The position numbers and the translations under genes were made by a program. 64,000 nt of DNA from contig CAVZGV010000003.1 in NCBI GenBank assembly GCA_963774955.1, positions 386,981-450,980 on the forward strand. Reading direction: 5' to 3'. The notes under the pieces were generated by a model that ran no database searches, was not told the origin of the DNA, and was given only the letters and a program-made list of their open reading frames with translations. Positions 36,320 through 64,000 of the stretch are shown piece after piece (position 1 is the first letter of the stretch; every line of letters begins with the position of its first letter). The DNA comes from Candidatus Falkowbacteria bacterium. Lineage in GTDB: Bacteria > Patescibacteriota > Patescibacteriia > CAIXNZ01.

Positions 36320-36429
36320 TAAATTATATAATAAAAGATTTTGGCCGCCCGTTTAGTAGAGACGCATTGCAATGCGCCTCTACCGTCCGCAACCCCATAA
36401 TTAATAGCCAAAATCATAGGTTCAAATAT

Positions 36430-38089: not shown

Positions 38090-38094
38090 ATTTT

Positions 38095-39867: not shown

Positions 39868-39888
39868 CTAATTTTTAAAATAAATTTT

Positions 39889-43417: not shown

Positions 43418-44095
43418 ATGGAAAAACAATTAATCATAAAATTACATAAAAATTTTGAAGATTGCGCTCATGAAAACGATGGGGTCGAATTTTGGTATGC
43501 TCGGGAATTGCAGTCTCTTTTAGGCTATGATCGTTGGGAAAATTTTGCCAATGCTGTAGAAAAAGCTAAAATTGCCTGTAAAAATTCTAAACAAAGCCTG
43601 TTAGACCATTTTCGTGACGTTACGAAGATGGTTAATATTGGTTCAGGCGCGAAAAAGGAGGTATCTGATATTATGTTGACCCGTTACGCCTGTTATCTTA
43701 TTGCGCAAAATGGCGACCCGAGAAAAGATGAAATAGCTTTTGCCATGACATATTTTGCGGTCCAGACCAGGAAGCAGGAACTTGTGGAACAGCGAATTGA
43801 AGCCTGGGAAAGATTGCAGGCCAGAGAAAAGCTATCATTATCTGAAAAGGAGTTGTCAGGAGTTTTATTTGAACGGGGAGTCGATGGCGTGGGATTTGCC
43901 AGAATTCGCAGCAAAGGCGACACGGCTTTATTTGGCGGCTATAATACTCAAGAGATGAAAAGCAAGCTTGGCGTATCAGAAAAAAGGCCTCTGGCTGATT
44001 TTCTGCCCAGAATAACCATCAAGGCCAAGGATTTAGCTAACGAGATAACGAGTTTCAATGTACACCACACACCATTCACCAAACCAACATCCTAA
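43418..44095 (+). CDS. DinD-like (DNA-damage-inducible protein D family) protein
   Basis: ATG 43418 (MEKQLII…). …GVEFWYARELQSLLGYDRWENFANAVEKAKIACKNS…DHF… matches the DinD-family core. Confidence 0.5.
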   Translation: MEKQLIIKLHKNFEDCAHENDGVEFWYARELQSLLGYDRWENFANAVEKAKIACKNSKQSLLDHFRDVTKMVNIGSGAKKEVSDIMLTRYACYLIAQNGDPRKDEIAFAMTYFAVQTRKQELVEQRIEAWERLQAREKLSLSEKELSGVLFERGVDGVGFARIRSKGDTALFGGYNTQEMKSKLGVSEKRPLADFLPRITIKAKDLANEITSFNVHHTPFTKPTS

Positions 44096-44124
44096 CCCAA
44101 TCACTATTCACCAACCAATAACCA

Positions 44125-45132: not shown

Positions 45133-45141
45133 GGTTGAAAA

Positions 45142-46524: not shown

Positions 46525-46650
46525 GTAAATGGCCATATATGATGTTAAAGTTAATTTATAAATTAAGATAAAAAGTCCTCTGGCGGAAGAGGATTTTTTG
46601 TGGATAACTTATATTGACTACTGACTAAACAGTCAGTACAATATAAGTAT

Positions 46651-47274
46651 ATGAAAACCTCAATTATCACCCCCAGGCAAAAGCAATTACTTCAAATTAT
46701 CCATGACTGGTTAAAAACTGAAGGTAATATTCCTTCATTTGAAGAAATGAAAAATGAACTTGGCGTAAACTCAAACCAAGCAGTTTTGGATTTATTAGAG
46801 AAATTGGAGGAGAAGAAAATGATTAAAAGAAACGAAGGACTAGCAAGATCAATAAATATTTTACAAAAGGGTTATGAATCACTTGAAGTTGCGCCTTTAG
46901 TAAATGTTGTTGGATTGGGTTCATGCGGACCTTTAGTTGAATTATTTGAGCAGAAAGATGTTTGGATGGAATTATCTCCGGAAGTTCATCAGTTTTCACA
47001 TGAGTTAATTATTATTAGGGCATTTGGCGATTCCATGATTGGGGCTGGTATTATTGATGGCGATTTGTTGCTTTTTACTAAAGCTAAAGAATTTAAGGAT
47101 AATGAAATTGTATTAGCCAGAACTATGGATGGTACAACCGTTAAACGATTAATAAATCGCGATAAAAAAACATATTTTCAGCCTGAAAATCCTAAATATG
47201 AAAGAATACCCGTGACTGAAGAAACTTATATTTTAGGTAAATTAATTAAAAATTTATCAAGAAATTATGCTTAA
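46651..47274 (+). CDS. lexA: LexA-like repressor (wHTH plus S24 peptidase)
   Basis: N-terminal LTPRQKQLLQIIHDWL…PSFEEMKNELG…NQAVLDLLEKLEEKKMIKR. C-terminal S24 block AFGDSMIGAGIIDGDLLL…TVKRL (Ser/Lys dyad). Stop overlaps the next gene start by 8 nt. Confidence 0.75.
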   Translation: MKTSIITPRQKQLLQIIHDWLKTEGNIPSFEEMKNELGVNSNQAVLDLLEKLEEKKMIKRNEGLARSINILQKGYESLEVAPLVNVVGLGSCGPLVELFEQKDVWMELSPEVHQFSHELIIIRAFGDSMIGAGIIDGDLLLFTKAKEFKDNEIVLARTMDGTTVKRLINRDKKTYFQPENPKYERIPVTEETYILGKLIKNLSRNYA

Positions 47275-49210: not shown

Positions 49211-49236
49211 GCATTTAATTATTAATAATTAGGAAT

Positions 49237-50052
49237 ATGAAAGATCTTATATCTCAAATTAAACAAAGTACCATATTTCTCGGGTTTATGAGAAATAATG
49301 AACCTGTCTATGTTGGAACTGGGTTTCTTATTCAGGTTGATGATGTTTTTTATGTTGTTACGGCAAAACATGTTGTTGAAAAAAAATATAGTCAAATGTA
49401 TATATTCCTAAATAATAAAAATTTTGGTGTAAATTTTAAGTCTATTCAAGAAATACTTAATCAGGGCTGGTCATGGAAAAAACATGGTGACAATGATGTT
49501 GACATCGCTTTATTGCCATTCCCGTTAGCTCCAACTGATAAATCAAAATTTATTCCACATACTTTATTTATTCAAGAAATAGCTGACATATCAGAACTTG
49601 TAAATTTATTTTTTTTATCGTATCAGCCAGGCATCAATGAGCTAAAAAATGATTCATCAATAAATCCTATAATTAGGAAGGGCGTAATATCAAGAATTAA
49701 TTACGATAAAACTTTTTTTATGGATGGGTTTGCATTCCCTGGAAATAGCGGCAGTCCCGTATTTTTGTTGCCAACGCCTATAAAAATTCAAAATGGTTTA
49801 ATGCAAATTGGAGGGCCGGTAGAAATTAAATTGGCAGGAATAATTGGGGCATATATTCCATACAGAGATGTAGCAGTAAGTGAGCAAACCGGAGAAGTTA
49901 GAGCTATTTTTACTGAAAACACTGGGATAGCACTTGTTCACTCAACAGCTCTTCTCCAGGAGATTATTAAGGGTGAAGATTTTCAAGAACAACATAAAAA
50001 ATTGACAAAAATAAAATTGATTCCTCAGGCGGAAAAAGAGCATTCTTCTTAG
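49237..50052 (+). CDS. cytoplasmic trypsin-like (S1/chymotrypsin fold) serine peptidase
   Basis: No signal peptide. His in VVTAKHVV, Asp in VDIALLPF, Ser in FPGNSGSPVFL. Confidence 0.55.
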   Translation: MKDLISQIKQSTIFLGFMRNNEPVYVGTGFLIQVDDVFYVVTAKHVVEKKYSQMYIFLNNKNFGVNFKSIQEILNQGWSWKKHGDNDVDIALLPFPLAPTDKSKFIPHTLFIQEIADISELVNLFFLSYQPGINELKNDSSINPIIRKGVISRINYDKTFFMDGFAFPGNSGSPVFLLPTPIKIQNGLMQIGGPVEIKLAGIIGAYIPYRDVAVSEQTGEVRAIFTENTGIALVHSTALLQEIIKGEDFQEQHKKLTKIKLIPQAEKEHSS

Positions 50053-50129
50053 TAGTTGGTATCTTTATTGATATTTTATCCCTATCTGTAGCCGTAAGTG
50101 GATAATCAAAATTAACTTAATTTTATTAT

Positions 50130-50966
50130 ATGGATGAGCGATTAAATAAAATGATTCTCGATATGGGAAAGCAATATGGCGAACATGCTAAAATTTTGAG
50201 CGAAAAAGTCAATGCGGAAATGAAAAAAAATTTTAAGGTAATCCATGAGATTACAGAAAGTTTAAAAAAACAAATTGAAGATATCAGCCCCGCAATTTTA
50301 ATGGTTCAAGAATCTATTCGGCAATTTGAGGAATCTAAGGAGTTTCATAAATTTGAGCAGCAAGCGTTTAATAATAGTGGTTGGTGGATAACCCCTTCAT
50401 TAATGGAAGTTCCAGTATACAAATTCCGTAATGCTGTAATTAAATACAATAAGGGTCAAAAAATTGCTATAACTAATTTGTATATATCGATTTATCAAAA
50501 GAATAATTGTAAATATTTGGGGCAGGTATTAAATAGTTGGGATAGTAATAAATACTTTAAACCATGGATGAAAATTATAAGGCAAGCATTAGAAGCTCAT
50601 GTGGATAAAAAATATTTTCTGTCAGTACCCGCATTATTGTTAGTAGCCGAGGGTATTTCAACTAATTATTGTAAAAAAAATAAGATTAAAATTCCCTATA
50701 AAGAAAATTCAAAAGGAGGTGAGAAAATCAAAAAAGCATTAAATTATATTAAAAATAATAAAGAAATTGAATTTTTAAATGCAGATTTTTTTATACTTGC
50801 TCTTGATAATATTATCTATGCTCAGACTTATAAAATTAATAAAAAAACTTTTAAATATTTCCTTAATCGCCATGCGGTTTTGCATGGTGGAACTACAGAC
50901 TATGGCACTTTGAAGAATTCATTAAAGTGTTTTATGTTGTTAGATTTTTTAAGTATTTTAAAATAA
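50130..50966 (+). CDS. hypothetical protein (278 aa), partner of the trypsin-like peptidase
   Basis: No recognisable motif. AT-rich. Its stop abuts the HsdS start (50966/50967). Confidence 0.5.
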   Translation: MDERLNKMILDMGKQYGEHAKILSEKVNAEMKKNFKVIHEITESLKKQIEDISPAILMVQESIRQFEESKEFHKFEQQAFNNSGWWITPSLMEVPVYKFRNAVIKYNKGQKIAITNLYISIYQKNNCKYLGQVLNSWDSNKYFKPWMKIIRQALEAHVDKKYFLSVPALLLVAEGISTNYCKKNKIKIPYKENSKGGEKIKKALNYIKNNKEIEFLNADFFILALDNIIYAQTYKINKKTFKYFLNRHAVLHGGTTDYGTLKNSLKCFMLLDFLSILK

Positions 50967-52292
50967 ATGACTTACTCAATAATCCCCAAATCCCACTTGG
51001 AAGGCGCTCTGCGTCTAGACCCGGAATACTATCAGCCGGAGTATTTGGAATTGATAAAAAAACTCGAGAAGTTGACTGATAAAAAATTGAAAGATTATGC
51101 TATTAACATTTCCAGGGGGTTTAAACCAATCAAGGGCGACTTTTTTAATTATATTGAAATATCAGAAATTGATTTAGGGAATGGTACTTTTAATGAATCT
51201 AAAATTCTAGGTGAGGAAGCACCGGATAGGGCGCAAAAAGTTGTAAAAGAGGGCGACGTTATTGTGTCTACTGTCAGGCCTAATAGAAATGCTGTTTCTT
51301 TGATCAGGGCAGAGCATAACAATTTTGTTGCTTCGAGCGGTTTTTGCAATATTGAACCTCGAAAAGTTTCTTCAGAGTATTTATTCGCTTATCTAAAAAC
51401 TAATCATGTTATAAAGCTATTGGACAGATTGACTTCCGCAAGCATGTATCCCGCGGTAACAGAGGAAGACATAATGAATTTACCTTTTTATGTTAAAAAT
51501 GAGCAAGCTATTATTAAATTAGTAAAAGAAGTTTTTGAGCAAATTGAGAAATCGAAATCGCTTTACGCCCAAGCCGAAGATTTACTGCTTGAAGAATTGG
51601 GTATTAATGATTTGGAATCAGAAGAAGATTTAACTTTTACAGCTACTTTAAAGGATTGCCTGCAAGCTGTTCGTATTGATGCTGATTTTTTTCAGCCGAA
51701 GTATGAGAGGATTTTAAGTAAAATAAAAGTTAAAAGGGAGAAATTAAGTAATTTAGTTTCTTTACAAAAGGGGATTGAGCCAGGCAGTGAAGAATATGCG
51801 GAAGAAGGCAAGCCGTTTATTCGCGTATCCAATATGTCCAAGTTCGGCTTAAATGATAATAATCAGCAATATTTGAGCGAGAAAATGTATAATGAATTGA
51901 AAGATAAATATCAGCCTCAAAAGGGAGATATTTTATTAAGTAAGGATGCGACTCCTGGCATTGCGGTTTTACTAGAAAAAGATGTTGAGGGTATTATCTC
52001 TGGCGGTACTTTACGATTAAAAATAAAAGATAAAACTTTAGTTCCTCAATACTTATCTTTAGTTTTAAATTCTGTAATTTGCCAAATGCAAATCGAAAGA
52101 GATGCTGGTGGGTCAATTATTATTCACTGGAGACCTGATCAAGTGGAAAATACAATTATTCCTATTTTACCCATCAAAATCCAGCAAAAAATTGCTGATT
52201 TGGTCAGTGAATCTTTTAAGTTAAGAAAAGAGGCCAAGGAACTACTAGAAGAAGCGAAAAAGAGGGTGGAGGAGGAGATTGAGAAGAAATAA
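50967..52292 (+). CDS. hsdS: restriction-modification specificity subunit (HsdS-like, two TRDs)
   Basis: GDVIVSTVRPNRNAV, YPAVTEEDIMNLPFYV, IPILPIKIQQKIADLV and a C-terminal coiled-coil spacer. 441 aa. Confidence 0.7.
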   Translation: MTYSIIPKSHLEGALRLDPEYYQPEYLELIKKLEKLTDKKLKDYAINISRGFKPIKGDFFNYIEISEIDLGNGTFNESKILGEEAPDRAQKVVKEGDVIVSTVRPNRNAVSLIRAEHNNFVASSGFCNIEPRKVSSEYLFAYLKTNHVIKLLDRLTSASMYPAVTEEDIMNLPFYVKNEQAIIKLVKEVFEQIEKSKSLYAQAEDLLLEELGINDLESEEDLTFTATLKDCLQAVRIDADFFQPKYERILSKIKVKREKLSNLVSLQKGIEPGSEEYAEEGKPFIRVSNMSKFGLNDNNQQYLSEKMYNELKDKYQPQKGDILLSKDATPGIAVLLEKDVEGIISGGTLRLKIKDKTLVPQYLSLVLNSVICQMQIERDAGGSIIIHWRPDQVENTIIPILPIKIQQKIADLVSESFKLRKEAKELLEEAKKRVEEEIEKK

Positions 52293-52295
52293 ATA

Positions 52296-52320
52296 AAAAT
52301 CTCATCTAAAATATTTTTTA
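52296..52320. repeat. REP-like intergenic motif AAAAATCTCATCTAAAATATTTTTTA (copy 1)
   Basis: Variants at 54369-54395, 54714-54740, 55689-55715, 59652-59688 (CCCCTAAGGGG variant), 60718-60745 and 62154-62181. Always sits between a stop and the next start. Confidence 0.6.
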
Positions 52321-52336
52321 AAATAACTAAAAATCT

Positions 52337-53923
52337 ATGGAAGCAGGTAAGAGAAACATCTCAGATATATTTAATCGCGCGCATAAATTATCAGTCCCTC
52401 ATTTTCAGCGAGCGTATGTTTGGGATGAGGAACAGTGGGAAAGATTTTTGGAGGATGTGGACTATGCTTCACGGGCAAATCCCCCTTATTTTATGGGGTC
52501 TATTATCTTGAAACAGCAAGAGACTACAATTAAGCAAGGCGATATACGTACAATTATTGATGGCCAGCAAAGATTGACGACATTTATTTTATTCTTTAAA
52601 GTACTCTATGATAAGCTAGGATTACCCGAAAAATTTAAGGAAATTTTCACCACTTTTGGCGGTGATATAATTCTGGAACATAATTATTCCGACAGGCCAA
52701 TCTTTGAAAAAATTTTACTGGGTGATGAATTGGGTAAAAAGGAAAAGAAGACAAGAATTTATAAATGTTATGATTATTTTTTGAATAATATTGATGAAAA
52801 AGTAATTAGCCCCAATAACTTACTGTCAAATATATTATTTGTGGGTATTGAGTTGCAATATCATGAAGATGAGCAGCAAATTTTTGATACTATTAATTCA
52901 TTGGGTGTTAGACTGACAACTGCCGAATTGTTGAAGAATTATTTATTTAAGGATGATCTTGATTTTTATAATAAGAATTGGCGCGATGTATTTGAAAAAG
53001 AGGATGAAATTAAGGAATACTGGGACCAGGGAGTAACTTCCGGCCGAAATATTAGAAATAATATTGACCTATTCTTGCAGTCTTATTTATTTATTAAGAT
53101 TCAAGAGAAAGACATTAATGTGAGCTCTGAGGATAAAGAACGTTATTTTAAGATTGATTCCGTTTTTAATTCGTATAAGGAATTCATGAATAAATACAAA
53201 CAGGATAGGGATTCGATCATCAATGAGTTAAAGGATTATGCGCTTATTTATAAGGATACTATTAATCCCGAAATTGTTGAGCAAGATTTAAATGCAGATG
53301 ATTATGTGCAGCGGATAAACTTGGTAATGTTTGGATTAGATACTGCAACGATTATTCCATATGTGCTGTATGTATCCAAAAAAGTGAGAGATGAGGAGGA
53401 AAAAAATAAGATTTTTAGATATCTTGAAGCGTATTTGATGAGACGGCTTGTTTCGAAAAAAACTACTAAAAATTACAATCAATTATTTAGGGGTTTTATT
53501 AATAATGAGATTGATACATTGGAAAAATTAAAGGATGCAATTGAGAAAAAGGGCGAAAAGATTAATAATATGCCAACAGACAATGATGTAATGGAGGGCG
53601 TAAATAAATCCCAGCTAACTAATAAACAAGCAAGGGGCATCCTTTATTTGATTGAGAGGTCAATCAGAAGCGATCTAAACGCTACTGAGCTAAAATTTCT
53701 TAATGAATATAGTCTTGAACACGTAATGCCAAAGAAATGGAGGAATAATTGGGGAGGTAATGAATTAACTGATGAACAGAAAAAAGAGCGAGATGATATA
53801 TTGTTGACATTGGGTAATTTGACATTAATTACTAAAAAATTAAATTCGTCAATTAGAGATTCTGACTGGCAGAAAAAGAAAAAGGGTAGGGGAAGCCATA
53901 AAGGATTGCTAGAGTATGCTTAA
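52337..53923 (+). CDS. GmrSD-like Type IV restriction enzyme (DUF262 ParB-like N-domain plus DUF1524 His-Me C-domain)
   Basis: N-terminal …HFQRAYVW…IIDGQQRLTT (DGQQR). C-terminal …LEHVMPKKW…LGNLTLI (His-Me finger-like). Confidence 0.6.
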   Translation: MEAGKRNISDIFNRAHKLSVPHFQRAYVWDEEQWERFLEDVDYASRANPPYFMGSIILKQQETTIKQGDIRTIIDGQQRLTTFILFFKVLYDKLGLPEKFKEIFTTFGGDIILEHNYSDRPIFEKILLGDELGKKEKKTRIYKCYDYFLNNIDEKVISPNNLLSNILFVGIELQYHEDEQQIFDTINSLGVRLTTAELLKNYLFKDDLDFYNKNWRDVFEKEDEIKEYWDQGVTSGRNIRNNIDLFLQSYLFIKIQEKDINVSSEDKERYFKIDSVFNSYKEFMNKYKQDRDSIINELKDYALIYKDTINPEIVEQDLNADDYVQRINLVMFGLDTATIIPYVLYVSKKVRDEEEKNKIFRYLEAYLMRRLVSKKTTKNYNQLFRGFINNEIDTLEKLKDAIEKKGEKINNMPTDNDVMEGVNKSQLTNKQARGILYLIERSIRSDLNATELKFLNEYSLEHVMPKKWRNNWGGNELTDEQKKERDDILLTLGNLTLITKKLNSSIRDSDWQKKKKGRGSHKGLLEYA

Positions 53924-54065
53924 GGAATTGAGATATTTTCAAAATATTTACAGAAGGAGTCATGGGGTGAGGAGGGAATAAAGGAACGCGCAAATGAACT
54001 TTATGATTATATGGTTAAGAATGTTTGGAACTTGAAGTTTTAAAAAACAGAGGAATTTTATATTT

Positions 54066-54365
54066 ATGATAAAAGCTATCAGTATGAATGATGAGGGCAG
54101 GGTTAAGAATTTTATTCAAAGCAACCATTGGATTTTCGCTAAAACTTATGCTAAGACTGCTCCTCACGAATATGTCTGTCGGGATTATCTTGATGACTCA
54201 ATGAAAAATGAATTTGTTTGGTTTGTTGAATTTATCAGAAAAAACGGAAACCCGGAAAAGTTTTTCAATTCAGAATATATTTATTTTCCTATCGACGGAT
54301 ATAAATACTGGACTATGGGTAATCCAATTGACGAAACTACTATTATAAATAGAGCGATTGTTTAA
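54066..54365 (+). CDS. hypothetical small protein
   Basis: 99 aa. Flanked on both sides by the REP-like motif. Confidence 0.4.
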   Translation: MIKAISMNDEGRVKNFIQSNHWIFAKTYAKTAPHEYVCRDYLDDSMKNEFVWFVEFIRKNGNPEKFFNSEYIYFPIDGYKYWTMGNPIDETTIINRAIV

Positions 54366-54397
54366 AATAAAAATCACATCTAAAATATTTTTTAGAT

Positions 54398-54715
54398 ATG
54401 TCGAAAAATCCTAATAAACAATTCATTGTTAATTTACAGGAGATGCAACTCGAGCGGGTTTGTTTTATAAAAATATCAGTCAGTAAGTCTCAGATTATTA
54501 AAAGAATCGGAGCCAAGCTTAGTGCGGAGATTTTAAGCCATGTCAAACCAATGAAGCTTTATGGCGTGAGCCGATATTTATACGCGGATATTAAAAAATA
54601 TTTAAATAAGACCAGTCAGGGCAGGGATTTGTTTATAGAACTCGTCGGCGGACAATCGTGTTTTTTGCCTCCAATCAATAAACATAGACAGGGGAAGCTA
54701 TTTATTAAGTCATAA
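54398..54715 (+). CDS. hypothetical small basic protein
   Basis: 105 aa. Flanked on both sides by the REP-like motif. Confidence 0.4.
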   Translation: MSKNPNKQFIVNLQEMQLERVCFIKISVSKSQIIKRIGAKLSAEILSHVKPMKLYGVSRYLYADIKKYLNKTSQGRDLFIELVGGQSCFLPPINKHRQGKLFIKS

Positions 54716-54737
54716 AAATTTCATCTAAAAAATTTTT

Positions 54738-55340
54738 ATGAAAAAACTCTCCCATCTCCTCATCCTCACCACCCTCATCCTCACCCTCACCGCCTGTTCT
54801 GAAGCGGGGACACTGGTTGTTAATACTAACCAGTGTCGGGATGTGGAATTGGCCAAACCAAATATTAATCAAATAGTTGCGCCTGAAAATAATGTTCCGG
54901 AACCTGTTTCTGATTTATACCCTGTGACCAAAGTCGTTGACGGCGATACCATCGATGTAAATATTGACGGCACAGTTGAGAGGATCAGGTTGATCGGCAT
55001 TGATACTCCGGAAATAGTTGATCCCAGAAAACCCGTGGAATGTTTCGGACTTGAGGCTTCCAATAAAGCCAAGGCAGTTTTGACCGGCCAACAAGTCAGA
55101 TTGGAAAAAGATAATTCTCAGGCCAATCGGGATGTTTATAATCGTTTGTTACGATACGTCTTTTTGGCTGACGGTATAAATTTTAATAAGATGATGATTG
55201 AACAGGGTTATGCTTATGAATATACTTATGACCTGCCCTATAAATACCAGACAGAATTTAAACAAGCGCAAAAATATGCGCAGGACAATAAATTAGGGCT
55301 TTGGCAGGATAATGTTTGCCCGGGTACGACATTAAAATGA
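54738..55340 (+). CDS. lipoprotein thermonuclease (SNase-like)
   Basis: Lipobox LTLTACSEA. VVDGDTIDVNIDG…RIRLIGIDTPE SNase active-site region. Confidence 0.7.
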   Translation: MKKLSHLLILTTLILTLTACSEAGTLVVNTNQCRDVELAKPNINQIVAPENNVPEPVSDLYPVTKVVDGDTIDVNIDGTVERIRLIGIDTPEIVDPRKPVECFGLEASNKAKAVLTGQQVRLEKDNSQANRDVYNRLLRYVFLADGINFNKMMIEQGYAYEYTYDLPYKYQTEFKQAQKYAQDNKLGLWQDNVCPGTTLK

Positions 55341-55395
55341 GGTTTGACGTATTTAAAATAATTTTAAAGATAAAAATCTGCCTTTTCATGTTATT

Positions 55396-55714
55396 TTTCA
55401 TTGAAAGAGAATGATGATTTTGGCCAATCGGAAGGTAGAGACACGGTTAACCGTGTCTCTACAGAACGTAAATTCGGTTCAGTCCCGCCAAAATCATTGT
55501 CATCAATTGTTAATACATTTAAAGGCGGCGTAACCCGTCGTTGTCATGAAAATAAATTGGATTTCAAATGGCAATCAAATTATCACGAACATATCATCCG
55601 CGACGAGGACGATTATGCCCGGATCTGCGAATATATCCGCTGTAACCCGGGTAAATGGTCTGAAGATCGAAATAATCCTTTAAATATAAAAAATCTCATC
55701 TAAAATATTTTTTA
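55396..55714 (+). mobile_element. 5'-truncated copy of the IS200/RAYT-type HuH transposase gene, about 99% identical to the 3' ~320 nt of copy 61600-62181
   Basis: Encodes …DFGQSEGRDTVNRVSTERKF…WQSNYHEHIIRDEDDYARI… (catalytic-Tyr region) but lacks the HVH motif. Ends in the REP-like motif. Confidence 0.6.
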
Positions 55715-55754
55715 AAATTTCAGTCAGCTATTTTAGGTCTGTTGATAAAAAATT

Positions 55755-55795
55755 TGACACTATATTTAAGTGTGGTATAATAATACCACACCTTT
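55755..55795 (+). promoter_or_regulatory. strong sigma70 promoter with an operator-like inverted repeat overlapping -10
   Basis: TTGACA, 16-nt spacer, TATAAT. GTGTGGTA…TACCACAC 8-bp inverted arms span the -10 box. Directly upstream of the XRE-family gene. Confidence 0.55.
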
Positions 55796-55815
55796 AATTT
55801 ATAAAAAAAATCGCT

Positions 55816-56196
55816 ATGCCAAACGCTAATTTAAAAAAATTCGGCGAGCTTTTGAAAGCTTTAAGAATGAAGCAGGATTTAAGCTTGCGGGACGTATGCA
55901 AAAAGGTTAATTATGACCCCAGCAACTGGAGCAAGATTGAAAGAGGTATGATTTCTCCGCCCAGCGAGGAGGTTGTTTTAGGCCAATGGGCATTGGCCTT
56001 AGGTCTGGCCAAAGAGAGCAAAGAGTATTATGAATTTATTGATTTGGCCAATATTGCCCAGGGCATTATTCCGGATTACATTATGCAGGAAAAAGACTTG
56101 GTCAGAGCTTTGCCGGCTTTTTTCAGGACGGTTAGAAATGAAAAACCGACCAAAAAAGAGATTGACGATTTAATCAATCTGATTAAGAATAATTAG
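55816..56196 (+). CDS. XRE-family HTH transcriptional regulator
   Basis: LKALRMKQDLSLRDVCKKVNYDPSNWSKIERG (HTH_3). Confidence 0.65.
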   Translation: MPNANLKKFGELLKALRMKQDLSLRDVCKKVNYDPSNWSKIERGMISPPSEEVVLGQWALALGLAKESKEYYEFIDLANIAQGIIPDYIMQEKDLVRALPAFFRTVRNEKPTKKEIDDLINLIKNN

Positions 56197-56203
56197 GAAA
56201 TTA

Positions 56204-56779
56204 ATGCAAACACCTTATTTCAAAAATCAGGAGCTTAAGCACAAAGCTGATGAGTTCAGAATTAAGCATTGGGGCAATGATGTGCCGGTAGATATTGAGC
56301 AGATTATTGAAGTTAAGCTGGGTATGGATATTATTCCGGTTCCCGGTTTATATAAACAATGCAATACCGATGCTTTGATTTCTTCGGACTGGAAGACGAT
56401 TTATGTGGATAATGATAATTATATTGATGACAGATGTTATAACCGCATTCGTTTCTCTTTGGCGCATGAAATCGGCCATTTTATTTTGCATCAGGAGCTT
56501 TATGCATCTTTTGGCATTATGAGCGTTGAGGATTTTTATAATATAATTGATGGGTTAAATAATGATTATGGGATAATTGAAGGCCATGCCAATCGCTTTG
56601 CCAATTTTTTGCTGGTACCGAGAGAAAAATTGGAAATTGAAAAGGTCAAAGCCTTGCAAGCCCACCCCGAAATAAAGGAATTGGAAGCTGCAACTGTAAA
56701 TTCCTACATTGCTATTCCCTTAAGTAAAATATTTGAGGTTAATGAAGGAGTCGTGGAAATTAGCCTAAATAACAAATAA
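56204..56779 (+). CDS. ImmA/IrrE-family metallopeptidase
   Basis: HExxH in SLAHEIGHFILH. Immediately downstream of the XRE gene, the classic ImmR/ImmA arrangement. Confidence 0.65.
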   Translation: MQTPYFKNQELKHKADEFRIKHWGNDVPVDIEQIIEVKLGMDIIPVPGLYKQCNTDALISSDWKTIYVDNDNYIDDRCYNRIRFSLAHEIGHFILHQELYASFGIMSVEDFYNIIDGLNNDYGIIEGHANRFANFLLVPREKLEIEKVKALQAHPEIKELEAATVNSYIAIPLSKIFEVNEGVVEISLNNK

Positions 56780-56802
56780 AGAGTTTATTTTAAAATACCC
56801 CT

Positions 56803-57553
56803 ATGACCCAATACTATAACCCCAACCGCGCCCCAGACTGGAACTATGGCGGGAAAAATTGGAAACTGTCACGATCAAAAATTGACCTTTTTGTAGAGTG
56901 TCCCAGATGTTTTTATGTTGATAATAAACTTGGCACCAAACGACCACCAGGATTTCCGTTTAATATAAATTCAGCAGTTGATAAATTATTGAAGCAAGAA
57001 TTTGATGTTCATCGCTCCAATGGCACTCAGCACCCATTGCAAAAAAAATATAAAATTGACGCAGTACCTGCCCCGCATGAAAGCATTGATATTTGGCGGG
57101 ATAATTTTAAAGGCGTTTCAATATTTGCATAAAGCTACCGGCATGACCATCTCCGGCGCGATTGATGATCTTTGGATTAATTCAAAGGGCGAATATATGG
57201 TGGTTGATTATAAAGCCACTGCAAAGGAAGAGGCCGTGACAGAACTTGATCAGGAATGGCAAGATGGTTATAAACGCCAAATGGAAGTTTATCAGTGGTT
57301 ATTGCGTAAAAATAAATTAAAAGTCTCTAATACCGGCTATTTTGTTTATTGTACCGGCCGTACAGACGTTGAGGCATTTGACGGTAAAATAGAATTTAAT
57401 GTAAATGTGATTCCTTATACAGGTTCTGATAAATGGGTTGAAAAAACCATTAAAGAAACTCATAAATGTTTGGAAAATAATAAAATCCCTTCTTCAGGCG
57501 CTGATTGTGATTATTGTAAATATGTGGATGCGAGGAATAAGTATGTTAAGTAG
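56803..57553 (+). pseudogene. Cas4/RecB-like PD-(D/E)xK nuclease with Cys cluster, split by a frameshift (ORFs 56803-57132 and 57002-57553)
   Basis: N-terminal …FVECPRCFYVD. Core IDDLWINSKGEYMVVDYK (D…E.K) plus QMEVYQWLL (QxxxY). C-terminal C-x12-CDYC. The two ORFs overlap in different frames; the frame switch falls between ~57060 and 57130, downstream of an A8 run at ~57043. Confidence 0.45.
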
Positions 57554-57629
57554 AAATCTCATCCCCAAAGCCAATCCCAATTGCGCTTATTGCAATTATC
57601 GGTCAGAGGCAAGGGAAGTGGAGGAATAA
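57543..57629 (+). CDS. candidate 28-aa Cys-containing peptide (MLSRNLIPKANPNCAYCNYRSEAREVEE)
   Basis: ATG preceded by GAGGAATAAGT. Overlaps the stop of the Cas4-like gene. Lies ~40 nt upstream of the rSAM/SPASM gene. Contains CAYC. Confidence 0.25.
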   Translation: MLSRNLIPKANPNCAYCNYRSEAREVEE

Positions 57630-57667
57630 AAATTTTATTTAAAATATTTTCAAAACAATTTTTTAAG

Positions 57668-59653
57668 ATGAATAATGATGATCCAAAATTAAAATTTCTC
57701 TCGCTAGAACTCTCGCCCGAATGCGACCAGAACTGTAAGCATTGTTATGCTAATTCATTGAAGTCTCAGGTTGAAAATATACTTACCTTTGAACAATGGC
57801 TTGACGTTATTAAGGCTGCTAAAAAAATAGGTTGTGAAGAAATACGCTTAACCGGTGGGGAGCCAACACTTAGTCCTTATTTTTTTAAAATAATAAAAGC
57901 CGCTCATCAAATAGGTCTTAAAATTGGCTTTAATACTCACGGCGTTCTTAGTAATGCAATTTTGGCTAAAATAGTCAGCGCTGCGCCTGAGAGGATTTTT
58001 ATCAGTTTTGAGGGCTCGCCAAAGACTGATGCGGAAATAAGGGGCAAGAAACATTTTCAGCGGGCGTTTAATAGTGCAAAGTTTTTAAAACAGGCGGGGC
58101 TTGAGGTGTTGATGAATGTACATTTAAGAAAGAGTAATTATCGAGAAATTGAAAAGTTGTCCAAAATAGCGGTTGAAAATAATTTTATTCTCAAATTGCC
58201 ATTTCTTCGTCCAATTGGGCGAGCCGCAGAATGCCTGACTGAAGAAATATTAAATCCAGATCAAACCTTGGTTGTTGCTAAGGAAACAGAAAGAGTTAAA
58301 ATTAAATATCCTGCTTTAAAAATAACAAGCGATTACCAACTGCTAGGTGATGTTCAGCAGCATATGCTGAATCATTGTCCTGCCGGGATAGTTTCTATCC
58401 ATATTAATCCTGATGGCACTGCTTTCCCCTGTGGTTTTATGAGAGCAGATGATTTTAAGTTGGGAAATATTAAAAAAATTTCTTTGAAACAAATTTGGTT
58501 TAAATCGCCACTGTTAATTAAAATGAGAAAGGTTACGGGGGCACCAAAATGTCAGCATTGTGAATATTTTAAAAGTAAATGTTCTGGACCTGCTAGATGC
58601 TTTTCTTATTACCTTAATGGTAAGTTATTCAGCGATGATCCAATTTGTTTTGCCAAAAGTAAGAGTGAAGAAATTGGACTTGAATTTTTAAAGAAGAAAG
58701 TAGGCAGGTTGCCCAAAAAAGAAAGGGAATTATTTAATAAAATATTTGATTTGAAAATAGATAAATCTGAAAAAGGGGATAACATTATAAGTTTAAGAAA
58801 CAAAATTGAAATGACTCAAGGGATTTATAATGTAGCTTCAAGACAGGGGAGACCCATTGATCCTGTAAAGTTAAAAAAAATCAGAAAACTTTGTGACCAG
58901 GTATCTGATTGTAAGATTTGTAAAAAAGGCCGGGGGAAACAGCAGTTTTTAGATGCTTTGCCCGGAGCTTATACCAAACATCATAAGGTTTTGTTTTTTG
59001 ACAAACACAATCCCACCAATATAACGCCATCATTGGTTACTGCTTGTTTAAAGGCATCCGTTTGCTGGTCTCAAAAAGAAGCTTTTCAAAAGAAGAAATA
59101 TTATCCTTATATATTTTGGAATACGTTAATCGGGTCTGAAATCCATGGCCATGCGCATTTGATTTTAGCGGAAGATCTGCAATTTGCTGAAGTTGAAGAT
59201 CTTTCAATCAAAGCCAAATCGTTTGGTGAAATTAAAGGCAAGAATTATTGGGAATCTTTATTTAAAGCCCATTTATTAGTCGGTTTGGCAAAACAAGTAG
59301 GGCGATTTAAATATTTTATGAATCTTGTCCCTAAATCGTCAAGGGAAATTTTTATCTTTGGCAAAACCGGCTTGGATGAAATGGCAATAACTAGTTTATC
59401 GCTGCTAGTTTCAAAAATTTGTCAGAATTGGATTAATCGAACACCCTTTAGGGTGCCGGCGCTAAGTATTTTTATAAGTTATCCTTTGCCCCAGAAAGTA
59501 AACAAGGACAAATTAACTATTGTCCGAATTGTTGATAGAAGATATCCGTTATTGGGAAAGACTGACAGAGGTACGGTTGAAGAATTTGCTTTTAAGGTTG
59601 TGACACATGATCCCTTTGAGGAATGGAAACAATTAGAAAAAACGCTTAAATAA
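57668..59653 (+). CDS. radical SAM/SPASM-domain protein fused to a C-terminal HIT-like (His-triad) domain
   Basis: ATG 57668 (MNNDDPK…). CDQNCKHC (CxxxCxxC), LTGGEPTL. SPASM Cys pattern CPAGIVSIHINPDGTAFPCGF…CQHCEYFKSKCSG…C. C-terminal …GSEIHGHAHLIL (HxHxHxx). Confidence 0.6.
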   Translation: MNNDDPKLKFLSLELSPECDQNCKHCYANSLKSQVENILTFEQWLDVIKAAKKIGCEEIRLTGGEPTLSPYFFKIIKAAHQIGLKIGFNTHGVLSNAILAKIVSAAPERIFISFEGSPKTDAEIRGKKHFQRAFNSAKFLKQAGLEVLMNVHLRKSNYREIEKLSKIAVENNFILKLPFLRPIGRAAECLTEEILNPDQTLVVAKETERVKIKYPALKITSDYQLLGDVQQHMLNHCPAGIVSIHINPDGTAFPCGFMRADDFKLGNIKKISLKQIWFKSPLLIKMRKVTGAPKCQHCEYFKSKCSGPARCFSYYLNGKLFSDDPICFAKSKSEEIGLEFLKKKVGRLPKKERELFNKIFDLKIDKSEKGDNIISLRNKIEMTQGIYNVASRQGRPIDPVKLKKIRKLCDQVSDCKICKKGRGKQQFLDALPGAYTKHHKVLFFDKHNPTNITPSLVTACLKASVCWSQKEAFQKKKYYPYIFWNTLIGSEIHGHAHLILAEDLQFAEVEDLSIKAKSFGEIKGKNYWESLFKAHLLVGLAKQVGRFKYFMNLVPKSSREIFIFGKTGLDEMAITSLSLLVSKICQNWINRTPFRVPALSIFISYPLPQKVNKDKLTIVRIVDRRYPLLGKTDRGTVEEFAFKVVTHDPFEEWKQLEKTLK

Positions 59654-59789
59654 AAATCTCATCCCCTAAGGGGCAGGCTAAAAAATTTACTTGTGGATAA
59701 GGCAGCTTGTATTCGGTTTTTGTTCGGGTTATAATTAATCATGGAATGTACTAACATTCTATTGTTAATTATTTAAAATCAGAAAGTAT

Positions 59790-60236
59790 ATGAAAATAAA
59801 TGATAAAATCGCCTTGTTTGAAGGCAAAACAATACGACGACATTGGGATGAGGAAAAAGAAAAATGGTATTTCTCGGTGGTGGATATTGTTGGGATTTTA
59901 AGTGAAAGCGCTGATCCGAGAAATTATTGGAAAGTTCTTAAAAATCGCCTTAAAGCAGAAGGTAGTGAGTTGGTTACAAAATGTAACCAACTGAAATTTT
60001 TGGCTAATGACGGTAAATATTATCTTTCCGATGCCGCTGATACCGAAACCTTGTTGCGTCTTATCCAGTCTGTGCCTAGTCCCAAGGCCGAGCCGGTTAA
60101 ACTATGGCTGGCAAAAGTCGGCTATGAAAGAATTCAAGAAACATTAGACCCTGAAAAATCTATAAATAGAGGTCGAGTAACTTGGCAAAGAATGGGTCAT
60201 AGTCAAAAATGGATCTTGGCAAAGATCGTAAATTAG
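59790..60236 (+). CDS. Bro-N-domain (phage antirepressor-like) protein
   Basis: IALFEGKTIRRHWDEEKEKWYFSVVDIVGIL fits the Bro-N pattern. Confidence 0.45.
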   Translation: MKINDKIALFEGKTIRRHWDEEKEKWYFSVVDIVGILSESADPRNYWKVLKNRLKAEGSELVTKCNQLKFLANDGKYYLSDAADTETLLRLIQSVPSPKAEPVKLWLAKVGYERIQETLDPEKSINRGRVTWQRMGHSQKWILAKIVN

Positions 60237-60366
60237 ACCGTTGGCAGGGACATGATGATAAAATAACAAAAAACAAATTCCAAATAACAAATAAATCTCA
60301 AATAACAAATATATAAATAACAAACGTTTGGTATTTGAGGTTTGGCTAATGTAATTTATTTGTGAT

Positions 60367-60745
60367 TTGATGCTTGAAATTTGGGATTTCAATATCATGC
60401 CCAATCATGTACACGTTGTTTTTTTATTGAAAGAGAATAATGATTTTGGCCAATCGGACGGTAGAGACACGGTTAACCGTGTCTCTACAGAACGTAAATT
60501 CGGTTCAGTCCCGCCAAAATCATTGTCATCAATTGTTAATACATTTAAAGGCGGCGTAACCCGTCGTTGTCATGAAAATAAATTGGATTTCCAATGGCAA
60601 TCAAATTATTACGAACATATCATCCGTGATGAAGACGATTATGCCCGCATTAAGGAATACATTTTCTGTAATCCCGGCAAATGGGCAGAAGACCGCAATA
60701 ATCCCATTAATATTAAATAAAAATCTTATCTGAAATATTTTTAAA
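60367..60745 (+). mobile_element. diverged, 5'-truncated copy of the IS200/RAYT-type transposase gene
   Basis: Retains MPNHVHVVF (HuH) and …WQSNYYEHIIRDEDDYARI. Lacks the first ~70 codons. Ends in a variant REP-like motif. Confidence 0.55.
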
Positions 60746-60777
60746 TATTATAACGTGAAATTATGTTGAATAAGACT

Positions 60778-61581
60778 ATGTCCAGCGAAGCGGAATCCCG
60801 CGTCTCGGGAAAAAAACTCGGATTGATCATATTGCCAATGTTGATCTTAATTATTTCAGGTTGCAGTCTGCCTTGGCAGGCGCCGCAACAGGTTGGCTGC
60901 GACCTGGACGCCAAACTTTGTCCGGATGGATCAGCTGTCGGCCGTAGCGGACCAAACTGCGAGTTTGCGGCTTGCCCGCAGATTGATATCAACCCTGCGA
61001 TTACTGATTTTAATTCCTGTTCCGCGGCCGGTTATCCGATTATGGAAAGTTATCCCCGACAATGCCGGGCTAATGGCCGGACTTATACGGAAAGATTGAT
61101 TGATAATAACAGCTCTAGTTGCACGATTAGTCCTAATTGCCAGCTGCCAATGGATTATGCGGTTCGTTCTAATTGTCCATACCAAGCTTATTGTTATAAT
61201 CAAAAATGCGTAGTCGGCTGTCCGTTATGGGATGAACCAACAAATTCTTGGGAGGTAAAATGTTCGGTTGATAAAGATTGTAATTGTGCTGCCTGGAATG
61301 AACAGGAAAATTATACTTGCGCTTGTGTGGACGGCCAATGCGCTTCTATTGTCTCCGGTCCAAGTTCTGAACAACCTGGTCCGGCCGCAGGCGATTATGC
61401 TGCTGATTGTCTCAAAAACAATGGTAATTGGCTGGAACAATATCGTGAGTGTGAATATAGCAGCCAAACCTGGTGTGATCAGGCTGGCGGTGTGTTTAAA
61501 GAATGTGAATCAGCTTGCCGCCATGATCCGCAGGCACAAATGTGCACCTTGCAATGCGTGCCCGTGTGCCAGTTGAAATAA
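60778..61581 (+). CDS. secreted Cys-rich lipoprotein
   Basis: ATG 60778 (MSSEAE…LILIISGCSLP). More than 30 Cys. Confidence 0.5.
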   Translation: MSSEAESRVSGKKLGLIILPMLILIISGCSLPWQAPQQVGCDLDAKLCPDGSAVGRSGPNCEFAACPQIDINPAITDFNSCSAAGYPIMESYPRQCRANGRTYTERLIDNNSSSCTISPNCQLPMDYAVRSNCPYQAYCYNQKCVVGCPLWDEPTNSWEVKCSVDKDCNCAAWNEQENYTCACVDGQCASIVSGPSSEQPGPAAGDYAADCLKNNGNWLEQYRECEYSSQTWCDQAGGVFKECESACRHDPQAQMCTLQCVPVCQLK

Positions 61582-61599
61582 AAACCTCAAAAAATAAAA

Positions 61600-62181
61600 A
61601 TGGATCGTGAATATTTTAAAAATCAATACCGTACCTCAACCAATCGGTTAAATTGTTGGGATTATAATTTGGCGGCAAAGTATTTTGTGACCATTTGCAC
61701 CCATGACCGCCAATGTTGCCTCGGTGAAGTCAAGAACGACAAGGTTATTTTGTTGGAGATTGGGAAGATGGTTTTTGAGGATTTGATGAATATACCCAAA
61801 TTACGCCCATATGTGTTGGTGGATGATTATGTCATCATGCCGAATCATGTACACATTGTTTTTTTATTGAAAGAGAATAATGATTTTGGCCAATCGGACG
61901 GTAGAGACACGGTTAACCGTGTCTCTACAGAACGTAAATTCGGTTCAGTCCCGCCAAAATCATTGTCATCAATTGTTAATACATTTAAAGGCGGCGTAAC
62001 CCGTCGTTGTCATGAAAATAAATTGGATTTCAAATGGCAATCAAATTATCACGAACATATCATCCGCGACGAGGACGATTATGCCCGGATCTGCGAATAT
62101 ATCCGCTGTAACCCGGGTAAATGGTCTGAAGATCGAAATAATCCTTTAAATATAAAAAATCTCATCTAAAATATTTTTTAA
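61600..62181 (+). mobile_element. tnpA: intact IS200/IS605-family (RAYT-like, Y1 HuH) transposase gene (CDS 61600-62169) plus 3' REP-like motif
   Basis: 189 aa with HuH motif MPNHVHIVF and catalytic-Tyr region WQSNYHEHIIRDEDDYARICEYIRCNPGKW. Contains a perfect 28-bp palindrome GTAGAGACACGGTTAACCGTGTCTCTAC (61901-61928). Confidence 0.7.
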
Positions 62182-62198
62182 TAATTAATTTTATCAGT

Positions 62199-62444
62199 AT
62201 GCAAATTCCTTTTATTTTAATGGCAGTGATTGCGGTGACGATTATTGTCCTGCTGGTTGTTTTTTTAAAAAAAGGAAAACCTCAACCTTTGACACCCTTA
62301 ACCAGTCTGGCTTTTGTTTTAATTATTGCCGGAATAATCGGTAATTCCGTACTGGATAACAGATTTATCAGTTATGGGTTATTTGGTTTGGGCGTGGTTT
62401 TGGCGGTAATTGATATTGCGCTCAAGGCCAGAAAACAAAAATAA
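62199..62444 (+). CDS. small membrane protein
   Basis: Two TM helices. 81 aa. Confidence 0.4.
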   Translation: MQIPFILMAVIAVTIIVLLVVFLKKGKPQPLTPLTSLAFVLIIAGIIGNSVLDNRFISYGLFGLGVVLAVIDIALKARKQK

Positions 62445-62670
62445 ATATGGATTTGAAAAAATGTAAATTACAAGCCAGTCGAAGGGTGGTCCGAAGATCA
62501 GAATAACTCCCTCGTTATCCGAAGCTCCGTAGGAGCGAAGGATAAGCGAATATTTTGTAATTATTTTTCCCTTGACATTTTTAGATTTTTATGATAAGTT
62601 TGATTGAAATATTGTTATTTCAAACAAATCAAAACCATCCAAGCATAAAGCTTGAGATGGTAAGGAGGAG

Positions 62671-63885
62671 ATGATGTCGTATAAGTTGGAAATGAAAATG
62701 CGGCCGAATATGATCGAGCGTCTGGAAATCGTGCCTGATTATATGGGCAGGGTTTACGATGCCATCGATTATTGGGACAGCCAGCTGAAATGCGAGCTGA
62801 CCATTCCGCTTCGCGGTCGGGAACAGAGCATTAAGTTTGTCTATGCGCCGCCTTCTTTTCTCAACTATCTGGGCGAAGGCGAAGTTTTCGGCGTCTACCT
62901 GGGTGATATGATTTTCATCAATGCCAATATCGGCGAAAATCGGCCCAACTGGGTGCCCTATATCATCCTTAAACTCTGGTCTGAACGTTTCGTTGATCAG
63001 GGCCTGGATGAAACCGGCAGAGTCAAGCATCTTCAGTCGTTGTGGGCCACCATTCGTTTTGCCGGCACGCAAATGCAGGCCGACGAATTGCGGGAATTCC
63101 TCAGCGCGCTGATGAAGCATGAAAGTACGGGTTATTTCCGTCTTGACGAGGAAGTCCGTAATTTCATTGAGGACGGCGGCGGCGATCCCAAAGCAGCCAA
63201 ACGCAAGTATCTGGAAAACCACCATCAGAGCCGTTGGGTTGTACGCGGCCGGATCGAGGAAGATCTGGTTTCAGCTCTGGGCGTCACAGCCTTTGACGGC
63301 TATCGTAATCATGCCGAGGCTATCCTGTCAGTCATCGGCGAGCTTGACGAGAAAAATCTGTACGTCATGGCGGTCTTTTTGCATGAGCTGGCCAGACTGG
63401 AACCCGGACGGGAATTGATCATCCAGCCGCCGTTTACATCCCTGGCGTATACGCTGACCAAAGAGTGCAACGGGTTTGTCGACCTGATCAAATTTTTGGA
63501 TCAGCCTGATAATCCTCAGGCAGAAGATGTGATTTGCCGTTTACCGTCAAAGCGGACAACCTGGCAGGCCCTGGGCAAGCGCATTACCTATCGCATCAGC
63601 AAGGCTGAAGAAAAGGTCAAAGCTTTGATTGAAACCGAGCAAAAGCGCCTGGCTGAAACTCTGAGCACTGCCCAGCAGGTCAATCAGCAGTTTGAAGTCT
63701 CAATGGCCACAGCCAAAAGCGCCCTGGCCAGAGTCAATGGTTTTGACGAAGCCAAACAGCTGCTGCAAAAGACCGGTGTTCAATTCCAGGGTGACATTGA
63801 AGCCCTGAGTTTGCTCAGCCGGACCACGGCGCAGAATCTGGCAGACCTTTCTCATCTGCAGATGATTCTGTTCGAACAGATCTAA
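62671..63885 (+). CDS. hypothetical protein (GC-rich, ~50% GC)
   Basis: RBS AAGGAGGAG precedes ATG. 404 aa, no recognisable motif. The overlapping minus-strand ORF 62629-63225 is rejected. Terminator at 63889-63922. Confidence 0.55.
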   Translation: MMSYKLEMKMRPNMIERLEIVPDYMGRVYDAIDYWDSQLKCELTIPLRGREQSIKFVYAPPSFLNYLGEGEVFGVYLGDMIFINANIGENRPNWVPYIILKLWSERFVDQGLDETGRVKHLQSLWATIRFAGTQMQADELREFLSALMKHESTGYFRLDEEVRNFIEDGGGDPKAAKRKYLENHHQSRWVVRGRIEEDLVSALGVTAFDGYRNHAEAILSVIGELDEKNLYVMAVFLHELARLEPGRELIIQPPFTSLAYTLTKECNGFVDLIKFLDQPDNPQAEDVICRLPSKRTTWQALGKRITYRISKAEEKVKALIETEQKRLAETLSTAQQVNQQFEVSMATAKSALARVNGFDEAKQLLQKTGVQFQGDIEALSLLSRTTAQNLADLSHLQMILFEQI

Positions 63886-63948
63886 AATCTTTAACCGCTT
63901 AGGCCATCAGGCTTAGGCGGTTTTATAATTCAGCTGATTTTGTATTGA

Positions 63949-64000
63949 AAGAGCATGATGATTTTGGCCAACCGGAAGGTAGAGACACGGTTAACCGTGT
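63949..64000 (+). mobile_element. start of a further 5'-truncated IS200/RAYT-type copy (runs off the window)
   Basis: TTGAAAGAGCATGATGATTTTGGCCAACCGGAAGGTAGAGACACGGTTAACCGTGT begins at the same internal breakpoint as copy 55396. Confidence 0.5.

Follow-up and report, generated by a model that had tools for sequence, protein, structure and literature searches.

An in-frame palindrome in a RAYT gene of a Candidatus Falkowbacteria genome and the origin of the partial gene copies around it

Why should a transposase gene carry a perfect 28-bp palindrome inside its own coding sequence, and why should incomplete copies of that gene lie close to it? The question is raised by a 64,000-nucleotide (nt) stretch of contig CAVZGV010000003.1 of Candidatus Falkowbacteria bacterium (hereafter the window), for which an original prediction proposed one intact gene for a Y1 HuH transposase and three partial copies, all carrying the palindrome. 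Four copies are present as described, namely the intact gene and the partial copies A, B and D (Table 1). The prediction went on to read them as an active IS200-like element that mobilises truncated derivatives. It is probable, instead, that the locus holds a small family of paralogues of the RAYT type (REP-associated tyrosine transposase) with an in-frame cognate REP (repetitive extragenic palindrome), and that the partial copies are recombination debris and not products of an active insertion sequence (IS).

The transposase and the palindrome in its reading frame

Class 2 of the TnpA_Y1 transposases is recognised by a HuH motif combined with a Y-x-x-x-N-P tyrosine motif; the key motifs of its subclass 2.4 are NH[IFV]H, WQ and YIxNNP, while IS200 subclass 1.1 has DH[VI]H and Y---Q (PMC6006769). 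In an alignment with 35 homologues, the protein of the intact gene displays NHVH at residues 82–85 (HVH at 83–85), WQ at 146–147 and YIRCNP at 167–172, starting with Tyr167. Across all 36 aligned sequences N171 is invariant and P172 nearly so; position 170 is cysteine against a consensus asparagine, close homologues reading YIANNP or YIAHNP. When a profile of 36 homologues was compared with solved structures, the single match was TnpA_REP of Escherichia coli (4ER8, E 6.7e-10). The same structure was ranked first by Foldseek for the AlphaFold model of the intact RAYT (pLDDT 83), with a root-mean-square deviation of 3.5 Å over 165 columns, and the ISDra2 and IS608 transposases ranked lower. By its motifs and predicted fold, the gene family is assigned to RAYT/TnpA_REP, TnpA_Y1 class 2, subclass 2.4 (Bertels group 4). 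Identity with IS200/IS605 (subclass 1.1) was ruled out by the presence of NHVH and YIRCNP instead of DH[VI]H and Y-x-x-x-Q. No subterminal hairpins were found beside the intact gene, where the intergenic gaps measure just 18 and 29 nt, nor was any tnpB-like open reading frame (ORF) found near it. With these motifs, no such hairpins or tnpB, and a best match to 4ER8, the proposal of an active IS200-like element did not hold.

The nearest homologues of the intact RAYT, among the matches listed, come from metagenome-assembled genomes of Parcubacteria, and a protein scan of viral contigs returned 2 distant relatives only. In the public annotation the gene starts at an internal GTG, giving 160 amino acids (aa); since homologues conserve the 29 residues upstream of it (61600–61686), the 189-aa ORF from ATG 61600 is the better call. 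A literature search gave no matches for the REP peptide or DNA strings, nor for RAYT in Patescibacteria, and the window, scanned in full against Rfam and for tRNAs, gave no matches.

The palindrome, GTAGAGACACGGTTAACCGTGTCTCTAC, consists of two 14-nt arms and occupies codons 101–110 of the intact gene. It recurs exactly at 55435, 60461 and 61901, with 0 occurrences expected from shuffled sequences, and a fourth instance is represented by its first 22 nt from position 63979 before the window ends. Such an arrangement has been described: in subclass 2.4, REPs lie in frame within tnpA_REP, between the HuH and tyrosine motifs and in a predicted peripheral loop, which was singled out as a striking trait peculiar to the subclass (Quentin et al. 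2018, PMC6006769). These "double foot" REPs begin with GT[AG]G and end with C[TC]AC, and those of the form GTAGAGAC…GTCTCTAC in Table S1 of that study are 28–29 nt long. By sequence, the palindrome corresponds to the cognate REP of the RAYT, and an in-gene REP is thus already known for subclass 2.4. In the AlphaFold model, the REP peptide falls in residues 97–109, which are disordered (pLDDT <50), and residues 91–120 form an unstructured segment between the HuH strand (83–90) and the helix 122–139 (alpha-C).

Conservation argues that the palindrome is a cis-acting element and not a chance occurrence, as the original prediction had held. Genome and metagenome scans recovered the identical 28-mer in RAYT genes of 56–70% aa identity (loci L001, L023, L024 and L026), so that the absence from homologous genes that was to speak against a cis-acting role was not found; the feature is, moreover, a published hallmark of subclass 2.4. 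When only columns with a conserved amino acid were considered, the codon was invariant in 8 of 9 REP columns compared with 14 of 41 elsewhere (Fisher p=0.0065). The REP codons thus appear frozen at synonymous sites, which indicates a constraint at the DNA level. Furthermore, in 8 related loci each RAYT gene examined contains a perfect double-foot palindrome of 28–29 bp whose inner sequence differs from one paralogue to the next; other palindromes, of the same length and with the same feet, include GTAGAGACGCGGTTAACCGCGTCTCTAC, GTAGAGACACGGTATACCGTGTCTCTAC, GTAGAGACAGGGTATACCCTGTCTCTAC, GTAGGGAACGTTCTAGAACGTTCCCTAC and GTAGGGGCACGATGCATCGTGCCCCTAC. As judged from the aligned sequences, differing yet perfect palindromes among paralogues amount to extensive compensatory change. 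In terms of protein sequence, a peptide that can be encoded by a reverse-complementary sequence with arms of at least 5 aa occurs in 50 of 120 homologues (RDAINRVS, RDMARHVS, RGTMHRAP and others), against 3% of shuffled proteins. In addition, a degenerate palindrome scan of viral contigs yielded 20 loci, all of a Bacteroidota-type variant GCGATTAATCGC (AGAGACGCGATTAATCGCGTCTCT) and mostly extragenic; all 26 matches of this variant in the 20 viral contigs are complementary at the four free positions.

The REP is in turn the apex of a nested hairpin of greater size; conserved codons make up the outer stem (Table 1), which is separated from the REP in the intact gene by spacers of 10 nt on the 5′ side and 24 nt on the 3′ side. 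Folded as DNA, the structure has a minimum free energy of −24.7 kcal/mol (z −7.8), the same on both strands; folded as RNA, it reaches −44.6 kcal/mol (z −9.7). Across 10 sequences 95% of outer-stem cells are paired and 9 pairs have changed on both sides, as in GATTTTGG/CCAAAATC to GATTTCGG/CCGAAATC and AATGATT/AATCATT to AAAGATT/AATCTTT. Shuffled controls gave 3.1±1.4 double-changed pairs, none of 500 reaching 9, and slid controls gave at most 2. The covarying outer stem, the non-coding solo copies described below and the freezing of REP codons at synonymous sites are new beyond PMC6006769.

A mechanism can be proposed on the basis of work on TnpA_REP binding and nicking (PMC3333891, PMC3479197, PMC8266576). 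The REP peptide would lie in a disordered surface loop, as modelled, and the protein would therein tolerate the insertion, while the DNA would be held constant as a single-stranded hairpin which the enzyme binds and nicks beside, in analogy to E. coli TnpA_REP. By the same analogy, the folded single strand may be bound through the GTAG foot and the hairpin and nicked at a nearby CT or CA, the dinucleotides at which RAYTs so far tested cut (PMC8266576). A REP copy kept inside the ORF would link the enzyme to its substrate, and a very stable hairpin in the mRNA would be a side effect.

That side effect could also be taken for the main function, the hairpin then being kept as an mRNA element that throttles translation or triggers decay in a form of RAYT self-limitation. 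The very stable RNA fold is consistent with this, as are those outer-stem pairs that are G·U on the sense strand, and there is a precedent in IS200, which is cited in a passage of PMC3733652 as limiting its transposase through RNA structure. However, both strands of the palindrome fold equally well, and the inner palindrome and the nested geometry recur as non-coding solo elements in either orientation, which points to a DNA element. Retention mainly for the mRNA is distinctly unlikely, although it is compatible with the explanation by RAYT paralogues with an in-frame REP and not exclusive of it.

Partial copies and their origin

The relationships among the copies can be followed from a landmark, ATTGAAAGAG, located 35 nt ahead of the palindrome at 55400, 60426, 61866 and 63944, a few bases off the coordinates given in the original prediction. 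Between this landmark and the point where homology ceases, 2 of 316 positions differ between copy A and the intact gene, in agreement with the predicted near-identity to the 3′ ~320 nt, and both differences are also found in copy D. Copy A has an open 100-aa ORF from TTG 55401 and a T-run with a 1-nt deletion; comparison with L023, L026 and L029 indicated that it keeps ~15 bases more (TTCATGTTATTTTT, from the second His codon onward, as in L023). Copy D keeps ATTCAGCTGATTTT at its 5′ end, lies directly 3′ of the terminator hairpin of gene 62671–63885 and has no ORF in the protein collection. Copies A and D therefore start at the same point and lack a complete HuH motif, as predicted, whereas the breakpoint is not just after the T-run: it falls inside the HuH codons, ~15 nt further 5′, at ~55385 and ~63930. 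The first ~15 nt of both copies are diverged, and from TTG 55401 on the sequence is conserved. Local alignments with shuffle controls detected no significant homology between the regions upstream of A and D and the 5′ half of the intact gene, and tblastn found no orphan RAYT 5′ halves in the window, which would be the sign of a gene split by insertion. A weak similarity between the upstream regions of A and B (p 0.04–0.12) was dropped as chance. On sequence grounds, A and D are best described as one lineage derived from a single truncation event within the HuH codons.

The common boundary is also what supports the mobilisation model, according to which the ~320-bp piece, comprising the hairpin, a 3′ coding remnant and the 3′ motif, is a non-autonomous single-stranded DNA (ssDNA) element that the intact RAYT cuts 5′ of the hairpin and pastes elsewhere, in the manner of an IS200/IS605 left end. 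The 5′ boundaries of A and D agree within a few bases at unrelated loci, and the two copies share two substitutions that are in neither the intact copy nor B. Moreover, ~30 nt separate the boundary, on the 5′ side, from the foot of a hairpin that is strong and covaries, and HuH Y1 enzymes cut near hairpins; at the left end of IS608 the spacing between cleavage and hairpin is 19 nt. Against this stand the number of examples, which is two, the diverged first ~15 nt of A and D, unlike a functional end, and a 3′ end with neither hairpin nor GTAG. The junction also has no CT or CA dinucleotide of the kind at which tested RAYTs cut (PMC8266576). When 185,579 genomes and a metagenome collection were searched for the exact palindrome, the 6 loci recovered comprised 4 full-length or near-full-length genes, 2 solos and 0 truncated units, so that the further ~320-bp units anticipated by the original prediction did not appear among them. 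Since copy B, in addition, is plainly derived by deletion, mobilisation in trans is unlikely.

The 3′ end of the supposed unit merits separate consideration, as it had been regarded as REP-like. What is found there is AAAAATCTCATCTAAAATATTTTT, an A/T-rich motif of ~24–30 nt, (TAAAT)AAAAATCTCATCTAAAATATTTTT, located at or just past stop codons of the + strand and confined, in the window, to an island at 52–62 kb. It ends the RAYT copies (also 55689–55712 in A and 60719–60742 in B) and equally follows unrelated genes (52295–52318, 54369–54392, 54714–54737 and 57628–57651), among them HsdS, two small ORFs and a PD-(D/E)XK region; a weaker copy stands behind the PD-(D/E)XK gene of L029 (3883). Its interpretation as a transposon end or REP was rejected, given that it follows unrelated genes and has no GC-rich palindrome. 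Its distribution instead suggests a generic gene-end signal of this Parcubacteria lineage, with a possible role as promoter, as terminator or in processing.

Copy B had been described as diverged and truncated. The divergence was confirmed, the copy being identical to the intact gene from −10 to +165 around ATTGAAAGAG and ~20% diverged beyond; simple truncation was not, in view of a true RAYT start, filler and decayed codons (Table 1). Its history can be traced by synteny and blastn against L029, which shares with the window the PD-(D/E)XK gene, Bro-N (95% nt identity) and a lipoprotein gene (85% nt identity), and in which two RAYT paralogues separate Bro-N from the lipoprotein gene. The Bro-N gene of the window is interrupted at 60215 (codon 148) and fused to a RAYT1-type start through an 11-nt microhomology, CAAAAATGGAT, a junction equivalent to a 1.7-kb deletion relative to L029 (59790–60259 versus L029 4580–6842). 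The next gene downstream of copy B is the lipoprotein gene, the order also seen for the RAYT gene of L023. The comparison places copy B at a locus of full-length RAYT genes in related Parcubacteria and indicates that it was cut down by deletions. Two divergent RAYT paralogues (~38% identity), with their own inner REPs, are present in each of L029 (6763–7332 and 8001–8561) and L031 (493–1056 and 8001–8594), and loci with several RAYTs may be frequent in this clade.

The intact gene is itself a mosaic: it is identical to B over −10 to +165 and to A over +34 to +315, which places the crossover between +34 and +165. From such patterns, the RAYT copies appear to be mosaics homogenised by recombination. 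One specialised version of this idea is a silent-cassette system, in which copies without a 5′ part donate to the RAYT 3′ half by programmed conversion of the pilE/pilS kind that would start at the hairpin. One expressed copy beside promoter-less 3′ copies, and a B/A mosaic whose crossover interval contains the hairpin, are what it would predict. There are, however, just two sequence types and no obvious benefit of varying the 3′ half, and for the mosaic, ordinary ectopic conversion among repeats suffices as an explanation, which leaves programmed conversion scarcely credible. The truncated copies might also be assembly artefacts or collapsed repeats, as near-identical repeats of ~300 nt can mislead short-read assemblers. 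Every copy nevertheless has unique flanks running into intact neighbour genes, private substitutions and a distinct mosaic pattern; the junctions of B are accounted for base by base against L029, and three copies are separate ORFs in the public contig. An artefact is accordingly highly improbable.

All RAYT copies fall within 8.6 kb, in a low-GC island (33–36% against ~40–43%) with restriction and defence genes. The annotation of the source contig (565,549 bp) lists three RAYT ORFs, of 107, 100 and 160 aa, all of which correspond to copies in the window, and no other RAYT of that contig is among the 120 homologues listed. The inference of IS activity from multiple copies was therefore set aside: B is deletion-derived, the copies are mosaic and all annotated ones are in one island. 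In the favoured explanation, the partial copies would have arisen by deletion together with homologous or microhomology-mediated recombination between paralogues in this island, and gene conversion would keep the RAYT copies patchily identical.

Several findings weigh against the explanation by RAYT paralogues and recombination. The breakpoint shared by A and D, ~30 nt 5′ of the outer stem, needs a duplicated truncated piece or a site-specific process and is not predicted by plain decay. The intact RAYT scores below curated hidden Markov model cut-offs (NCBIfam NF047646 REP_Tyr_transpos, 64.8 versus 80 bits; Pfam PF01797 Y1_Tnp, 22 versus 23), probably because the domain match is split by the loop insertion; the ORF of copy B clears the Pfam PF01797 cut-off at 28.6. 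No REPs flank the gene within ±1 kb in the REPtron arrangement, as no GTAG-foot palindrome occurs outside the gene copies at 54.5–64 kb; the solo REP nearest the intact gene is 25 kb off, at 36356. Finally, the intact copy lies 3′ of the lipoprotein gene, a position at which no RAYT is found in L029, so that at least one full-length RAYT copy changed place. A proposed synteny with L029 for the gene downstream of the intact copy was discarded, the proteins not being homologous and a 13-nt flank match being chance.

Solo elements and island genes

The solo element at 36335–36417 has the same outer stem as the RAYT hairpin (GATTTTGGC/GCCAAAATC), with spacers of 10 and 23 nt, whereas its inner palindrome, GTAGAGACGCATTGCAATGCGCCTCTAC (36356–36383, 1 mismatch), is a different one; no RAYT with this inner REP was seen in the window. 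Additional solos, in either orientation, were found in the related metagenome loci L022, L023, L025 and L029 (Table 1), with outer stems of 9–14 bp that vary in sequence and spacers of 6–13 and 19–25 nt. In the L023 solos, the right spacer is similar to its counterpart in the RAYT coding sequence (p 0.003–0.007), and some solos keep a RAYT-like outer stem, GATTT(T/G)GGC, with spacer remnants of the KFG codons. Solos of L022 and L025 share the inner REP of the RAYTs yet have unrelated outer stems, and the reverse case was also seen; the inner palindrome has therefore been shuffled relative to its outer context. Either the 28-mer moves or converts independently of that context, or it inserts into pre-existing hairpins. 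A bolder view would treat the nested hairpin of ~83–86 nt in the ORF as the master copy of a REPIN-like mobile element, which the enzyme excises or copies to seed solos, while cutting by the same enzyme 5′ in its own gene would generate units of the A/D type. This is thought rather unlikely; if true, the transposase would carry its own transposon inside its reading frame.

Table 1. Positions of the RAYT copies, the REP and hairpin elements and the gene-end motif
Feature	Position	Strand	Remarks
Intact RAYT (TnpA_REP subclass 2.4) gene	61600..62169	+	189-aa ORF
Double-foot REP, perfect 28-bp palindrome GTAG…CTAC	61901..61928	+	in intact gene; codes (G)RDTVNRVS(T)
Nested hairpin in intact gene, ~86 nt	61879..61964	+	REP at tip
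Outer stem, left arm AATGATTTTGGC	61879-61890	+	codons NDFG
Outer stem, right arm GCCAAAATCATT	61953-61964	+	codons PKSL
Gene-end motif AAAAATCTCATCTAAAATATTTTT	62155..62178	+	3′ end of intact RAYT
Copy A, 5′-truncated RAYT fragment	55385..55716	+	nested hairpin 55414-55497; REP 55435-55462
Copy B, decayed hybrid pseudogene	60209..60745	+	nested hairpin 60439-60524; REP 60461-60488
Copy B, RAYT1-type N-terminus	60209-60259	+	starts MDLGKDRKLDRWQGHD
Copy B, decayed codons 46-76	60316-60393	+	after low-complexity filler
Copy B, well-kept RAYT2-type 3′ part	60394-60720	+	
Copy D, fragment cut by window end	63930..64000	+	REP starts 63979
Solo non-coding nested REP element	36335..36417	+	in 110-nt intergenic gap
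Solo REPs of related loci	L022 1122, 2637; L025 1535; L023 1289, 2349; L029 5816		

Among the island genes at 44000–60000 are a Type I restriction-modification specificity subunit, GmrSD, an SNase-like nuclease and an XRE plus ImmA/IrrE pair. The PD-(D/E)XK gene of the island is split into two ORFs (56803–57132 and 57002–57553), and the island also encodes a radical SAM/SPASM protein of 690 aa, whose long C-terminal half is uncharacterised. Elsewhere in the window, a 61-nt intergenic repeat occurs three times (37527–37587, 38081–38141 and 39875–39935; 85–93% identical) and includes a hairpin resembling a terminator, CCGCCTTTGGCGG, with an A-run after it on the + strand.

Relation to known systems and significance

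The closest described system is subclass 2.4 (PMC6006769), with which the window RAYT shares NH[IFV]H, WQ, Y-I-x-x-N-P and an in-frame double-foot REP of 28–29 nt in a predicted peripheral loop. It differs in its host, a member of the Parcubacteria (candidate phyla radiation), a phylum without mention in that study; in having no flanking REPs; in the placement of its REP within a larger covarying outer stem of conserved codons; and in occurring as several near-identical or truncated copies, the subclass mean being 1.5 copies at ~40% identity (PMC6006769). E. coli TnpA_REP and its REPtron (4ER8; Ton-Hoang 2012, Messing 2012, Corneloup 2021) are closest in sequence and fold, at ~21% sequence identity, and likewise have GTAG at the foot of the hairpin; the window RAYT retains the WQ…R region through which 4ER8 contacts GTAG. 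The REPs of E. coli, however, are imperfect, bulged and extragenic and flank the gene, unlike the perfect REP inside the ORF described here. With IS200/IS605 elements (IS608, ISDra2) the system has in common the Y1 HuH fold, presumably the logic of hairpin-dependent ssDNA cleavage, and the occurrence of partial and highly similar copies; it has Y---NP and not Y---Q, NHVH and not DH[VI]H, no end hairpins, no tnpB and no dispersed copies. REPINs (Bertels and Rainey 2011) are also short non-autonomous hairpin repeats tied to a RAYT, with intergenic solos, of which the 64-kb window holds one; in a REPIN, two inverted REPs form the stem, whereas here a single double-foot palindrome tips an outer stem with asymmetric spacers (6–13/19–25 nt).

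Altogether, current views are not overturned: the finding is real and largely ordinary, and adds structural detail in the form of the outer stem and the solos. REP/RAYT systems, known mostly from Proteobacteria, Cyanobacteria and Bacteroidetes, are extended to the ultra-small genomes of Parcubacteria, in which RAYT paralogues would act as recombination substrates that reshuffle a defence island. The locus offers a clean example of a presumed DNA substrate frozen at synonymous sites within the ORF of its own enzyme, the substrate belonging to a more extensive hairpin that covaries. With no more than a protein and an 86-nt oligonucleotide, the system would be compact enough to test by what means perfect double-foot palindromes are recognised by group 4 RAYTs, and whether these enzymes cleave the gene that encodes them.

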